Source: Tricharina praecox (taxonomy: Eukaryota). Taken from it: DNA of 64,000 bases. Below the pieces are notes generated by a model. It was not told where the DNA came from and did no database searches. It saw nothing but the letters and a program-made list of their open reading frames with translations. The DNA is taken from positions 186,001-250,000 of the forward strand of contig NW_026250407.1 in NCBI RefSeq assembly GCF_024521635.1. Reading direction: 5' to 3'. Below are positions 56,794 to 64,000 of the stretch, in pieces. Made by a program: the position numbers and the translations under genes. The stretch's first letter is position 1; each line of letters begins with the position of its first letter.

Positions 56794-58055
56794 ATGGCGA
56801 AAACAAAACCCAGCAGCAAAGACAAAAAAAAGTCCAAGACCCGATCGCGCGAGAAATCCCTTCTACACAGCACAGGCGGCCTATCCAGCAACCCTCACGC
56901 CACCCCTTCCGCACCCACACCCGCACCCGCCGAGTCGACCGCGACCCTCCTCGCCGCGGCGACGGCACTGCTGCACACAAACAACGAGCCCGACCAAGCG
57001 CTCACGCTTGCAACACAAGCACTGCAGCAATCCCCGACGTCCCTCTGCGCCCTCGAGCTGCTCGCCGAGATCCACGTCGAGCTCGGCGACGTAGCCACGG
57101 CCTACACGCTGTACACCCGCGCTGCAACCCTTGACCCCAACGGCGCACACGAGTCCGCCGGCGGCTCCGGCCCAGAAAAGTTTCTCTGGCTGGCGCAGCT
57201 GTGTCCCGAGGGGGGCGCGGCAGCCGTGCGTTGGTACACGACGGGGGTGGAGGCTTTGCAGCGGCTTGTCGCGCTGCGGGACGGGGGAGTTGTCGGGGGC
57301 GCGGCGCAGAAGGAGCTGGTCGAGCGCGGGCTGGAAAGGAAGCTCGTGTCGGCGCTGTGCGGGCTCGCGGAAATCTACATGAGCGACCTGTGCATGGACG
57401 CGGACGCTGAGGCGCGCTGCGAGGCGTATGTAACACAGGCGCTGTTGGCCGTGCCCGATAGTGCCGAGGCGCTGCAGACCCTTGCCAGTGTCAGGATCTC
57501 GCAGCAGAGAGTGCAGGATGCTGTTGCGGCATTGGAGCGCGCGGTGGGAGCGTGGAAGGAGCTGGAAGCGGAGAGCCCGGAGATGCCGAGTTATGCGGCT
57601 AGGATATCTCAGGCGAGATTGCTCATCGAGACCGAGCAGTATGAGACCGCTGTGGAAGTCCTGGAGAGACTGCAGGCCGAGGATGATCAGTTGCCGGATC
57701 TGTGGTATCTAGGTGGCTGGACGCTCTTCTTGCTGGGAGAGAGGGAGAGGCCCAGGAGGGAGGGATGGGCGGAGCTGTGGGAGGCCGCCAGGGAGTGGTT
57801 GAAGACTTGTCAACAGGTAGGCGGCGGCATTTCTGTTCTGTTTCGTGGGTTGCGTGGGTTAAGTGCTGATGTGTGGAATAGCTTTATAACGCCCTTGAGT
57901 GGGAAGACGAGGGGATCCGGGAACATGCTGAGGAATTGCTGGGTAAGATCCTGGAAGTTATACCCGAGAAGGAAGGCGAGGATGAGGAAGAGGCGGACGG
58001 AGATGAGGAGGAGGAGGAGTGGGAGAGCGATAGTGCAGATGAGGAGATGTCGTGA
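56794..58055 (+). CDS. ACL4: TPR-repeat assembly chaperone of ribosomal protein Rpl4 (Acl4), 2 exons
   Basis: Motifs GPEKFLWLAQL, ALCGLAEIYMSDLC, EALQTLASVRISQQR, PSYAARISQARLLIE and DDQLPDLWYLGGW. Intron 57817-57881, then an acidic tail ending EEMS*. Confidence 0.88.
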
Positions 58056-58304: not shown

Positions 58305-60340
58305 CTATACCACACCTTCCCACCCACCTCCGCGTCCCAGAGCCGCCTCTAGAATCAACTCCCACACGCCGGCAAAGCTCAGTACCACATCGTCCAACTC
58401 CGCTCTCCAAAACTCGCCCGAGGCACTAAACGTGATCTCGACGCTGCCGTCGTCTTCCTCCTGGTCTTCGTCGACCTTTGCCAGGTAGCAGGCGACCAGC
58501 TGCTGCTCGAGGTAGAGATTGCTCGACGCGGCAGCGACATTGTCGTTTTTCGAGATGGTGAACCCCGTGAACTGCACGTTGCTGCCTGGCTGCTCGCATT
58601 CCACCGGTGCGCCGGACGCGACGTGGAGCACTGCGAGAATCGTGGATAGCTCGGGTGATGGCGGCAGCATTGAGAACGAAGGGTGCAGGAATAGGTTGCG
58701 GTAGAAGGGGAAGGTATTTGCTGTTCCAGTGTTAGCGCCGCTCGTCACTCGCACAAATTGTGGGTGTGTGGTAGGAAGAGGCAAACATTTTATCCTCTCT
58801 CCCCTCGCGGCAACCGCTACCTGAAACGCCGTCTCCCTTTCTTCAGGCGGCACATCCGCGTCGGCGAGCATCTCGATGAACCTCACGCCCTCCTCGGTGA
58901 CTGCCATGACCGGCTCACTCCTTGCATTCGCGGTGCCGCGCTGATACACGCTCTGTGTGATGGGAGTATCTCTACCCACGGCCGCCTGCAGCGCCAGCTG
59001 CAGCGTCGCATCCACCAGCCGCTTCTGCAGCAGCTCCTTGGGCAGCCGCAAAGACAGCGTCCGCACAGACCGCGCTACGTTGTCGGTGTACCCCCGTGGC
59101 ATCGGTGCTTTGCGCGGCGCGGGAGTGAACAGCACGGGCTCGCCCGCCCGTGGCCCGTTGTACATCGGTAGCATCTTGCATGCGGTGATGAGGGCGGGGA
59201 AGGAGAGCTCCTTGGGTGGGCGTGCCCGCACTTGGTATAGGCGCCGTCCTACGTCTGCTTTTGCGGCGAGCTCGGATAGCCAGAGTGCGGTCTCGAGCCC
59301 CGCGGAACAGTCTGCTACGGTGTGGTCGGTCGTCATCCCCACTGCCCCGTCGGAGTATACGACGAAGCTGAGGGTTTGGTCGGCGAAGCGGTTGGGCGAG
59401 TCGCAGTTGCCGCGGATGTCCTCGAGGGCGTCTGACGTCGGGTGTGGCAGGACGTAGTCTTCCAGTGCTAGGGTGGTGAGCGAGCTGTAGAGGCGGTTCA
59501 TGGTCATGTTGGTCCGCGTATCTGACGAGAGCGAGGCTTTGGTCTTCGCCCATAGTTCCCGCGGGAGACGATGTGACAGCGCCGCGACGGAGATGTTGGC
59601 CGTTTCCTGCACTCCATTAGCTTTCGCATCCACGACAACGGATAGTTAGATGCATGAAGTCTCACCCGCCCAGCCGCCTTCCTCACAATCCCCTCCAGCT
59701 GCGCCCTTATCTCCTCCACGCTCACCACCTCTCCCATCCTGAACACCTCTACGGCCCACGCCCTCCCAGCGACCCACACCACGGCCTCACCCAGGTCCCC
59801 AGAGGCCAATTGTACATTATCGCACTCCCTACCCGGCACATGGAAGCCCCCCAGCAGGCCATCCGTCTGCCACCCAATCTCCTTAGACTTCCTGCCACCG
59901 AAGCCATCGCGGCGCCAGACGCCCACGGCCCAGAGCACGCGGGCGGCGGCCTCCTCGCGCGAGCGGCTGCGCCCCGCAAGCAGAAAGCTCGCTTTCACGT
60001 CTGTGGCGAGGGTCCAGCGCCCCGAGAGCTGCAGCGCCGTGATGAAATCGTGGGTCCAGTTTGCAGACTTGGGGAGGAGCTCGCGGAGGCGCGCATCGAT
60101 CGGGTCGAGTGACGGGAGCAGCGCCTGTACTGCTGTGGGGTAGGCGGCCACCAGGTCCGCGGGCAGGAAGGGCGCCACCAGTGACGGCAGCGAGAGCAGT
60201 AACGAGTAGATCGGTGGGATCGCGGGGTAGCTTTTGGCTGCCTGCGAGTCGTCCGCTCCTGCTGCAGCCGCCGCCGAGGTGGAGGAGGTGCTCGAAGATG
60301 TTGTGCAGGTGGTCGGCATGTCGGTTTGAGGGCTTTTCAT
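58305..60340 (-). CDS. Highly divergent choline/carnitine O-acyltransferase family protein, about 3 exons
   Basis: Collinear matches to family blocks: GGFHVPGRECD, VSVEEIRAQLEGIV, PRELWAKTKASL, NRFADQTLSFVVYSDGAVGMTTDHTVAD (HxxxD), DATLQLALQAA and ARSEPVMAVTEEG. Introns at 59665-59607 and probably 58786-58721. Confidence 0.75.
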
Positions 60341-61597
60341 TTCTCGATTGAATGGATGGGGGAGGGCCGAACACGGTTTTTATACATGAAGCTCCCACCC
60401 CCCCCGCACGCCCCACCCCCCCACCTCAGTCCAGCCCAGCCCGGCCCGTCATTTCTGACGAGGTGGCCAATCTCTGTATACAGATGAATCATGATTGCTT
60501 GCTATCACTACCTAATCAACTACTCCTCGCAGCTTAGTTAGTTAGTTGGATACCGTACGTAGTTGTAGCTCCGATCCCTCTGACATAAGCACAGCTGCAG
60601 CGGAGCGTTATACATATGTGCAAACAAGCTGGCGACTTTGATTATCCGCAGCAGCAGCAGCAGCAGCATGCACGTGTAGAGTGCGCAGAGTAGCCAATCG
60701 GACGGGACGATCGCAAGCGAAAAGCGGCCGGGCCCCCAATCGCAGTAAGTACTGAGTACGTGCGCCGTGCGGGCGAGGGGGAGTCCGTCCCGATAAAGTG
60801 GAAGATAAACTGCCCCACTTCCGCTATCTCTGCTTCTCGCTCTGCGGGATATACATAGCAGTGTATGTAGGGGTGTGTAGTAGATACTGTGCAGTAGACA
60901 CCCCGCCACCACCACCACCGTCACCACCGTCATCCGGGCCCGGGTCCTCAGATGATAGAGTAGGTATGTAGAGTACCGTAAGTACTCGTACATACCAGTA
61001 GAGTAGTGGGCGATACATCATACATACCCACCCACCTACCTATCGATATACAGCGGGCCCGCACCCGTAAAAAAAAAAGTCAATCAAGTACCTACTCTAC
61101 TTGTGTAGAGTAAAGTGGTGTCGTGTGTTGTTCATATGTATCCACAATCCGGATCCGCTGCGTGCTGTTCTCATACCTATTCAATCAGTTTGATGTGCGG
61201 GATGGTCCGGACGGTAGCTGCGGACCTGCGGTTGTGGGTAGTGATCATCCCATCGTTATGTGGAGTACTGAGTAAAGTGCGAGGGGCAAAGTCCGGAGGC
61301 GGGGGAGATCTATAGTATACCTACTAGGTAGAGTGCCTAATCTGATGGATTGCAAACAGCGTGCGCGAGTGAGAAATCTGGGGGGAGGGGGATGTCCCGC
61401 ACTTTTAAGGTGGTTCGCCTCTCCTCATCCAAGCCGGTACACACTTCTGCTTGGTGCCCATTCACACTCCCTATGCTCGACCTACTTTTTCCTCACCACA
61501 TTACTACACCCTCAATCGCAAGCCTGAATGAGACTTGCGAGACTCAATTCCATCCGGATCTCCACCTCCATATTGAGCCTCATCGAACCTCATTGAA

Positions 61598-62097: not shown

Positions 62098-63380
62098 TTA
62101 ACGGAGGCCAATGACGCTCTGTAGTAATGTCAGTATGGAGTAGGAAAGACGGTGTAGGGAAGGGTAGGCAGACCATTTCGAGAGTCCAGACACGACGGAT
62201 CCACACTTTCAGCTTTCCATCCACGCCGTCGACGCCCTCGAGCTCGAGGCCTTCCCACCAGCATCGACGCTAAAACAAAAACATCAGCATATGGCAGCAC
62301 GGCAAAAAGGTTATGGTACATACTGCGGGCTTCCTCCAAAACAGCAGCAGCTTCTGCGCCATTCCAACCACGTTGCTGTCATTCGAGTCCTTGGAGTCGG
62401 TTCTCAACCTGGCCAGAGCCAGACTACAGATCACGGCCTTGTTCGGCTCTCCGGCGCGGTGTCCCCAGGTATCGTCGACGTTGAATCCTCTGCCATAGTT
62501 AGCAAGACAAGATCCCCCGGCAGCTGTTACGTGCCATGTAGAATGCGAGTAGATCTAACCCAGCGGTCAACATCTCGATGAGATGTTGCTCAGTAGTGCC
62601 GGTATCATCGGTCCTCCTCAACCCCGAAAAGATACCATCCTGCTTGAGCAGGACTCTCCCGGCAGCGCGCTTGACCTCCATCATTTCCTGGCGCGAGATG
62701 TCGCGCTTCGGCGGTATCGCGTAAAAATCCAGGTCTTCCCGCAGGACAATGATACCAGCACGGTCCTGCAGGACATTGGCAGGGCTCGTTTGCAATTGGT
62801 TCACCTCCTCGTCCTCGTCCGCCGAAGCCACCGTGATCGTCGACGAGACTTTCCGGAAGAAGTCGAGCATAAATTTCAGGCAATTCGGATCGAACTGTGG
62901 CGGGTGTCAGCGATTGGCGCCATTGCGTTATGTAGGACAAAGGCAACAACAACATACGTCGACTATGTAGATTCCATCGTCATGATACGAGTTCTGCTGT
63001 CCGTCGGGGAATAGACCGTTGGGGAACAGCGACAACAACACAAACTCGGGCAGCGTCAGGAGTTCGTCGCGCGACAGAATGAACGGGGTACCTCTGTCAC
63101 AAACACACGCACGCGACTTGATAAGCGAGGGGTCTTTTCGAGCCAGAATGGAAGGAAAGCGCGAGAAAAGCTACCGTAGGTCCAAGGTCAAGTTCTCTTC
63201 TCCAGTGCCTGGTGCATCTATGAAATCACAATGTCAGTTGGGATCTGCCCGAACAAAGGATGAAAAAAAGAACGCCGGCGCGCATATATCTATCGGGCCC
63301 GTACCTGCCAACGTGTTGAGCGGTGGCCCTCCTTGCTGCACCTGCGTAATGATCGACCCGGAACCTCCTGCGGCTGCCAT
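62098..63380 (-). CDS. WHI2: Whi2 growth/nutrient-stress regulator (BTB-like), multi-exon; N-terminus may be longer
   Basis: Spliced motifs IITQVQQGGPP, ENLTLDLRGTPFILSRDELLTLPEFVLLSLFPNGLF, RAGIIVLREDLDFYAIPP, TTEQHLIEMLTAG, MAQKLLLFWRKPARRCWWEG and LKVWIRRVWTLEMSVIGLR*. Confidence 0.92.
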
Positions 63381-64000
63381 AGCGAAAACGAATGAATCGA
63401 GCGGTGAGAGTGCTTCCGTGTAAGGTGGCGGTGGCTGCTCAGGATCCTGTTTGCTGTACGATGGCGAGGGGACGAGAGATGAAGGACCGACGACGGCGAC
63501 GAGACTCCCCGGTTGCTGCTGTTTCTGCGATTCCGCGGACTTGGACGAAGGTGATTCTGGCGGTGATGGGGGTGTGCTAGCAGACTCGGCGATTACTTCG
63601 GCGTAGGAAGACGGCTGCTGCGTGGAGGGAGCGTCCTCGGCGGTCGAGAAGTGCGACTGTAGGTGTGTAGAGGACGACACGTCGGGGAAGGCAAGGAGTG
63701 TTCTGCGGTGGTGAGCAATGTAGGAGGAGGCGAAGGAGCGAGGGTGGATTCGGAGTAGCCGTCAACGTGCATGCAGTCCAACGACAGCTGATCTGGCGGC
63801 GAGCGGAGGGCGGGCGGGCGGGAGGGCTGGGGTGTATAGTACCGAGTACGGACTTTGGGGTATCCAGATGTCGCTGGGCTGGGGCTCGATGAGGAGGAGG
63901 TTGTGTCTAGTGGTCGAGGGTTTACTTTAGGGGCGGATTGGGGTAATTGGGGTGTGTGATAGCCGCCGAGTTGAAGTTATCCTAAGCACCAACCAACCAG

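Follow-up and report, generated by a model that had tools for sequence, protein, structure and literature searches.

The cpc-1 gene of the amino-acid response, as described for Neurospora crassa and Pezizomycotina homologs in the available text of Ivanov et al. (2017; PMC5487733), has a long leader that is open in the main frame, with conserved near-cognate codons in good context and an N-terminal extension that is conserved across the Pezizomycotina. All 100 homologs possess a pair of uORFs (upstream open reading frames) whose AUGs stand in optimal contexts, and the near-cognate codons (ACG, AUU and CUG), being located upstream of the AUG of uORF2, bypass the latter. A second case is human KCTD11, a functional counterpart of Whi2, for which a role in TORC1 (PMC6126876) as well as a long form started at AUU (PMC6566181) have been reported; there, the 39 extra residues complete the BTB domain.

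Whi2 orthologs themselves have been studied as regulators of about 295 aa with respect to TORC1, cell fusion, clock output and infection structures, and binding of Psr1/CSP-6 as well as restraint of TORC1 are known for the family from the literature (PMC5800702, PMC6126876). As far as the available text of the family papers goes (PMC6987382, PMC4184795, PMC5800702, PMC8295519), they deal with the short AUG-initiated form only, and an extension, an isoform or a PY motif is not mentioned there. For CSP-6, the partner phosphatase of Whi2 in Neurospora, two translation starts have been reported as well (PMC5800702).

The mechanism itself, i.e., a non-AUG extension, is already known; the case of WHI2 was not found in print, no description of such an extension being present in the literature searched, the coverage of which takes in few subscription papers. 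The gene lists or supplements of Wei et al. (2013), a study reportedly devoted to start-codon stringency in Neurospora, and those of initiation-site profiling studies in yeast may name whi-2.

The WHI2 locus and its unspliced leader

The window analysed here, a stretch of 64,000 nucleotides, belongs to a 38.4-Mb eukaryotic assembly. The region of interest is the 5′ end of WHI2, a gene of seven exons that is encoded by the minus strand and represents the only WHI2 locus found in the genome. The exon model yields a product of 290 aa that is identical to a protein annotated in Tricharina praecox (P0282), its other closest named relatives being from Pyronemataceae such as Sphaerosporella and Pyronema. 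By sequence comparison this product is a clear, full-length ortholog of the named Whi2 proteins (Whi2 names being among the matches), a family including yeast Whi2, Neurospora WHI-2 (NCU10518, 297-298 aa) and MoWhi2; a Pfam search gave no match, neither for pieces of Whi2 nor for whole proteins.

The first exon of the main mRNA extends unspliced from 63965 to 63305 and comprises the main AUG together with the first coding part (63305..63380), where the 290-aa short isoform starts with G at −3 and G at +4. Exons 2 to 7 are located at 63217-63175, 63093-62958, 62894-62560, 62489-62324, 62269-62174 and 62118-62098, and are separated from each other and from exon 1 by six GT..AG introns. Four runs from four studies were aligned to the locus, comprising one DNA contig (X1) and three spliced contigs from three studies (X2, X3 and X4). 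As the latter skip all six introns, with all six joints present, they are derived from mRNA, whatever their labels. They reach 63965, 63819 and 63813, respectively, and cover the leader without gap or mismatch across a run of four C, the candidate start codon GUG and the upstream AUG (uAUG) discussed below; the X2 contig (2806-3466 in the coordinates of the fetched window locus L001, to which 60499 is added to obtain window positions) spans the entire first exon with 0 gaps. The leader thus has at least 585 nt 5′ of the main AUG, all of it unspliced.

The lineage of the window is represented by four loci, namely L001, L068, L069 and the distant L062. In the window, the WHI2 frame is open from 63761 down to the ATG at 63380, i.e., for 127 codons without stop or ATG, as originally predicted, and it is closed upstream by an in-frame TGA (63762..63764, minus strand) that lies 8 nt past the uAUG and is found at the same place in all four loci. 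The context of the uAUG at 63772 is poor, with U at −3 and C at +4. This uAUG opens a uORF of 59 aa (63593..63772, minus strand; stop TAA at 63595-63593) which reads over the GUG and overlaps the extension; from its frame, a shift by −1 would lead into that of WHI2. The description of this uORF as overlapping holds for the extension but not for the main AUG, 212 nt upstream of which it ends, and the claim that its ATG is the only upstream one holds within the window, another ATG being present just outside at 64003-64001. The latter starts an ORF of 8 aa (64003-63977; L001:3504-3478, minus strand) that is present in L068 but not in L069 and is located further upstream than the deepest mRNA contig reaches.

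The C run is genuine and lies at 63684..63687 (minus strand), one base away from the predicted 63683-63686. It shows no gap in any of X1 to X4, with X1 reaching 63728, and it is of equal length in L068 and L069 but missing from L062.

Beyond the window end, the upstream neighbour of WHI2 is a PEX20-like gene (L001:4029-4916, minus strand), whose weak match to the PEX18/PEX21 C-terminal domain (E 1.3e-4) stays below the cut-off; the gene order looks old, since several public models fuse a similar protein to WHI2. On the other side, a carnitine/choline acyltransferase-like gene occupies 58305-60379 (minus strand) in two frames probably joined by an intron, and a gene coding for a TPR-repeat protein with an acidic C-terminal exon is found at 56794-58055 (plus strand).

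Conservation of the extension and of a near-cognate codon

Related loci were fetched with a degenerate pattern covering nothing but the opening codons of the main ORF, and the resulting 99 metagenome loci together with the window locus comprise 69 unique ones, three of which are too short upstream and were left out of the following count. In all of the 66 unique loci with at least 20 upstream codons, the upstream frame (last up to 85 codons) contains neither stop nor Met and harbours a PPxY motif. Because this was found in 66 of 66 loci although the pattern covered the main ORF start only, the conservation of the extension goes beyond chance.

Candidate start codons were picked, with a filter on their context, in 50 of the 52 unique loci having at least 570 nt upstream. 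These 50 loci form 20 clusters at 85% identity and are therefore related, so that counts among them are not counts of independent events; the group names used below (e.g., Leotiomycete-like, Sordariomycete-like) are labels by resemblance to named proteins. The arm is 89-215 codons long, and among its 7,789 codons there is no in-frame Met, while out-of-frame ATGs number 11 compared to 106 ± 9 expected. This near-absence of ATG, in all frames, between the near-cognate codon and the main AUG is the pattern to be expected if most ribosomes must scan through. CTG (40) and TTG (24) are rare among the 437 Leu codons of the arm, perhaps because additional near-cognate starts are avoided.

Eight of the 11 out-of-frame ATGs stem from one Tyr-Ala/Asp/Val-type junction in an APAY motif about 180-210 nt before the main AUG (L008, L025, L029, L034, L035, L037, L050 and L067); they mostly open ORFs of 3-8 codons in poor context, and Sordariomycete-like fungi possibly tolerate, or make use of, a small uORF there. 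In the lichen-fungus-like locus L024, an in-frame ATG is found 732 nt before the main AUG in an open frame of 257 codons, at a great distance 5′ of the conserved TTG; this ATG may precede the start of the transcript, or else be a true AUG start.

Comparison of 14 close pairs of loci reveals a coding signature that sets in at the near-cognate codon. Mismatch rates at the three codon positions amount to 0.30/0.28/0.25 on its upstream side and to 0.11/0.08/0.26 on its downstream side, and gaps in multiples of three account for 2 of 19 upstream but for 23 of 25 downstream. In the window, the predicted extension comprises 100 codons (63381..63680, minus strand), is rich in Ser and Pro, lacks Met and is predicted to be disordered. 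Its last 29 codons (63381..63467) are strongly conserved and contain the PY motif (PPPPY, 63434-63420); mismatches by codon position are 1/1/7 with respect to L069 and 2/1/14 with respect to L068. Over the first 70 codons past the GUG there is no third-position bias (5/6/6 and 6/3/6 with L069; 6/11/9 and 2/10/8 with L068). Pooled over the 14 pairs the signature is present, but within the lineage of the window it is clear only in the last 30 codons, the front part of the extension being weakly constrained there.

With respect to the start codon, TTG is the candidate in 39, GTG in 9 and CTG in 2 of the 50 loci. In these context-filtered picks position −3 is always a purine (A in 44, G in 6), and TC mostly follows the codon. 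TTG makes up 39 of the 41 Leu codons at the start site as opposed to 24 of 437 elsewhere in the extension. In a blind test, five groups comprising 48 of the 50 loci were aligned as proteins, the remaining group of two being left out; the boundary column where alignable sequence begins has an NTG codon in 4/4, 3/3, 13/14, 8/8 and 18/19 loci, and the exchange of L and V in that column occurs only among TTG, GTG and CTG. A conserved near-cognate codon in initiation context hence sits where coding conservation begins, the exception being L071, one of the two loci without a pick, which has ACG and no NTG; in the other, L013, the corresponding position is TTG. An ACG immediately precedes the TTG of the Leotiomycete-like group and may serve as a start too.

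In the window, the corresponding codon is the GUG at 63678..63680 (minus strand; G at −3, UC at +4/+5). GTG is present at the alignment boundary in all four loci of the lineage, and together with its 9 flanking bases it is invariant even in L062. Of the two near-cognate starts originally proposed, both of which, like the PPxY motif, lie where they had been placed, the GTG at 63680 with its conserved context is retained, while the ATT at 63719 was rejected, being CTT in one relative. It is therefore at the GUG that, judged by sequence and conservation, initiation of a long form very probably takes place, with G instead of A at −3 and the ACG of L071 weighing against it. A stimulating hairpin after the start was considered and rejected, as the drop in raw folding energy coincides with a rise in GC content and amounts to a mean z of only −0.41 ± 0.13 against dinucleotide shuffles.

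The uORF has a narrower distribution. Its AUG and its stop are found at matching places in L001, L068, L069 and L062, with distances of 92, 92, 116 and 68 nt from uAUG to GUG and lengths of 59, 59, 67 and 60 aa, and it ends in the matching segment of the arm via ATA or GTA codons, which are minor choices there (ATA 23 of 105 Ile; GTA 50 of 339 Val). The peptide is not conserved, its changes being mostly non-synonymous, and a homology search, which is weak for so short a protein, gave no candidate homolog. That its frame stays open for 29 codons past the start is unremarkable, as the same applies to 31 of 46 other loci. Since a uORF overlapping the start was found in only 8 of the 50 loci, here in four loci, three of them close, it is a feature of the lineage; three Tuber-like loci have a uORF of 7-8 codons instead, ending 5-15 nt before their TTG. 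The original suggestion of control by a uORF is therefore plausible for the window lineage but does not extend to the family, and for a regulatory role in the former the chances are about even. A family-wide uAUG some 90-110 nt before the start was rejected: an ATG lies within 150 nt in 33 of the 50 loci, but positions and frames vary, and ATG density in that interval (0.12-0.43 per 50 nt) is below the value of about 0.9 further upstream. Comparison of the uORF-frame peptide with the in-frame extension of Dothideomycete-like proteins, as a trace of an old frame break, likewise gave no score above shuffles.

The reading favoured here, with a probability of roughly 0.83, is that one mRNA would provide two in-frame Whi2 starts by leaky scanning. 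Its basis is the sequence, the intact mRNA, the conservation and coding signature of the extension, and the conserved near-cognate codon. Scanning ribosomes would first meet the weak uAUG at 63772, and those starting there would translate 59 codons out of frame and past the GUG; they would terminate 212 nt short of the main AUG, and some of them might then reinitiate. Of the ribosomes leaking past the uAUG, a minority would start at the GUG at 63680 and produce a Whi2 of 390 aa (predicted 42.6 kDa) with a disordered arm of 100 aa ending in the PY motif, whereas most would cross the AUG-free stretch, start at the AUG at 63380 and produce the form of 290 aa (predicted 32.2 kDa). The short form is likely to be the major one. 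Findings from Neurospora weigh against a long form: WHI-2 with an internal HA tag, expressed from its own promoter with about 1.5 kb of upstream sequence, ran close to the predicted 32.2 kDa, and the available blot text mentions no larger band (PMC4184795); a Pccg-1-whi-2-gfp construct complements the deletion (PMC6987382), and a mass-spectrometry table lists WHI-2 as an entry of 298 aa (PMC5800702). Since the blot and the entry indicate the short size although models from relatives, such as Neurospora tetraspora and Sordaria, carry the arm, a long form would be minor, conditional or unstable.

Other routes to the extension

Among the alternatives to leaky scanning with initiation at the GUG, a start lower down survives best, although it is improbable. 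According to this explanation, the long form would begin at the ATC at 63593, which overlaps the uORF stop, by a stop-restart event, or only a short PY-bearing piece would be made. In all four loci of the lineage an in-frame ATA, ATC or ATT does overlap the stop of the uORF, and the clear coding signature here is limited to the last 30 codons. However, the identity of the overlapping codon varies, and a stop in the uORF frame forces an NTA codon anyway, whereas the GUG and its 9 flanking bases do not change even in L062 and match the family-wide NTG-TC pattern.

Alternatively, the extension might be reached via a minor splice from an upstream exon supplying an AUG, or from another transcript start. 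A CAG preceded by CTCAC is located at 63703, in 27 of the 50 loci a YAG precedes the candidate codon by no more than 20 nt, and contigs lose rare variants. The three RNA contigs, for which this last limitation holds, contain no splice joint in the leader, and a branch-like motif accompanies only 2 of those 27 YAGs as compared to 27 of 35 first-intron acceptors. Furthermore, in L020, L035 and L075, spliced loci from other groups, the extension is present and no in-frame AUG reaches it. A leader intron was accordingly rejected, there being no joint in the RNA contigs and mostly no branch motif at the candidate acceptors, and the explanation as a whole is very improbable.

Just as hard to sustain is −1 ribosomal frameshifting, by which translation of the uORF would pass into the frame of WHI2 and give an AUG-initiated long form. 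It had been offered as one option in the original prediction, is left open for cpc-1 in the available text of Ivanov et al. (PMC5487733), and would be in keeping with the distances from uAUG to GUG (92, 92, 116 and 68 nt), which are always in the same phase. There is, however, no slip heptamer of the form X XXY YYZ in the uORF of the window and none common to the four loci, and the C run is missing in L062; without a shared slip site, frameshifting is unlikely. As a possible stimulator, RNA structure after the GUG is weak (mean z −0.4). Moreover, the changes in the uORF peptide are mostly non-synonymous, and 42 of the 50 loci lack a start-overlapping uORF, yet all have the extension, so that recoding is not needed either.

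That the extension is an untranslated relic in this species, or is translated as noise only, is hardly credible. The weak constraint on its front part and the Neurospora blot near the short size (PMC4184795) would fit this view, but the last 30 codons change almost solely at third positions, the frame survives several indels, and AUG is avoided. Finally, a one-base assembly error in the C run, with the gene truly starting at the ATG at 63772, can be dismissed: one added base would indeed fuse both frames, but the DNA and RNA contigs of four runs from four studies cross the C run without a gap, and the frame break recurs in two related species (L068 and L069).

The PY arm and comparison with known systems

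PY motifs bind the WW domains of Rsp5/Nedd4 ubiquitin ligases, and partners of this kind include the arrestin-related adaptors and Bul1/2. The motif of the arm, [P/L]PxY, lies in a conserved segment predicted to be disordered, and the same genome encodes an Rsp5-type protein with three WW domains and a HECT domain. In the AlphaFold2 model of a close relative (P0001), residues 1-128 mostly have a pLDDT below 50. For residues 128-200 of this model, a BTB/T1-like fold is weakly supported: the best Foldseek E value is 0.0055, and the best VIA-align Z is 4.9 (rmsd 3.3 over 62 residues), with BTB/T1/SKP1 proteins in most rows, both being weak matches of a low-confidence model with a mean pLDDT of 55. 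Neurospora WHI-2 is found at the cell periphery and affects endocytosis (PMC6987382). By analogy with such partners, the PY motif of the long form probably binds Rsp5, and the long form would be either a substrate of the ubiquitin ligase or an adaptor that recruits this ligase to the plasma-membrane complex of Whi2 and Psr1, a role that seems likeliest because PY-WW biology is established and WHI-2 acts on endocytosis at the periphery.

The arm is widespread in proteins, too. A search with an internal exon yielded 120 protein homologs, 86 of which have a recognisable core start, 29 beginning at the core Met and 57 being longer. All of these 57 public models have a PPxY motif, and there is no Met in the 5,659 residues before the core Met; a further 117 of 117 proteins with PPxY had been fetched with the extension as query and are thus not independent support. 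Among the longer models, 14 of 57 carry more than 400 extra residues and represent fusions to neighbours. Many long models are either fused in this way or marked partial, which is how gene callers deal with a coding stretch without AUG. A conserved non-AUG arm would explain a recurring annotation error, in which public models either take the short AUG as the start or join WHI2 to the upstream gene (dipeptidyl peptidase 3, an ABC-F protein, a G-patch protein or a PEX20-like gene).

Twelve distant homologs, picked from 52 distant or partial proteins of which most others begin at the core Met, have a PY motif that precedes the core Met by 12-17 residues, and a single Met in 1,584 upstream residues. 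For Saitoella complicata there are models of 282 and 343 aa, the longer one having LPAY. A yeast cluster is annotated at 423 aa with members of up to 564 aa, and the annotated model of Blastobotrys adeninivorans starts at a Met 80 residues upstream. These data, which for the wider range come from proteins alone, point to the presence of the PY arm in all three ascomycete subphyla, and most ascomycete fungi apparently make Whi2 in two lengths, the longer one from GUG or UUG.

Regulation of the choice between the two starts can be proposed more tentatively. Control by amino-acid supply is possible but rather doubtful, and the same caution applies to the wider proposal that a two-start switch predates the split of the three ascomycete subphyla, such that initiation stringency (eIF1/eIF5 balance, eIF2-alpha phosphorylation), tuned in the window lineage by the conserved overlapping uORF, might set the share of Whi2 carrying an Rsp5-binding arm. 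If so, initiation fidelity would be coupled to ubiquitin-dependent endocytosis and to TORC1 restraint, and an isoform of low abundance or fast turnover would have been missed by every tagging and complementation study of the short form. If the conserved second isoform has an Rsp5 docking motif, this would also connect it directly with the endocytosis phenotype that whi-2 mutants of Neurospora display. What is new is the mRNA evidence, the variant with GUG and overlapping uORF in Pezizomycetes, and the reach to Saitoella and budding yeasts at the protein level.

Compared to the PY partners of Rsp5/Nedd4, the WHI2 arm likewise has [P/L]PxY in a disordered arm of a cell-periphery protein with a role in endocytosis, with the difference that in WHI2 the motif is predicted solely in the non-AUG isoform. 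KCTD11 also has a non-AUG long form (PMC6566181), but while it is the BTB domain that its extra residues complete, the fungal arm of 90-215 residues is predicted to be disordered, precedes an intact, putatively BTB-like domain and bears a PY motif; the non-AUG starts of the two are a likeness only and do not imply a common origin.

With cpc-1, WHI2 shares the long leader open in the main frame, the conserved near-cognate extension, membership in the amino-acid response and, in the window, a uORF that is similarly long and covers the extension out of frame (PMC5487733). The 'cpc-1-like layout' originally noted therefore applies to the extension, whereas the geometry is reversed. WHI2 has one dominant UUG or GUG and, in the covered leader of the window, a single uAUG in poor context instead of the two uORFs characteristic of GCN4 and cpc-1, the layout of uORFs varying between groups and a start-overlapping one being confined to 8 of 50 loci. 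Moreover, no near-cognate start lies upstream of the uAUG as in the bypass of uORF2: the GUG is 92 nt downstream of it and covered by the uORF, with the in-frame TGA in between. Judged from these sequence features, WHI2 would work like the conserved near-cognate extension of cpc-1 and not like a two-uORF switch of the GCN4/cpc-1 type, and would then represent, beside cpc-1, a second deeply conserved non-AUG extension in the fungal amino-acid response.
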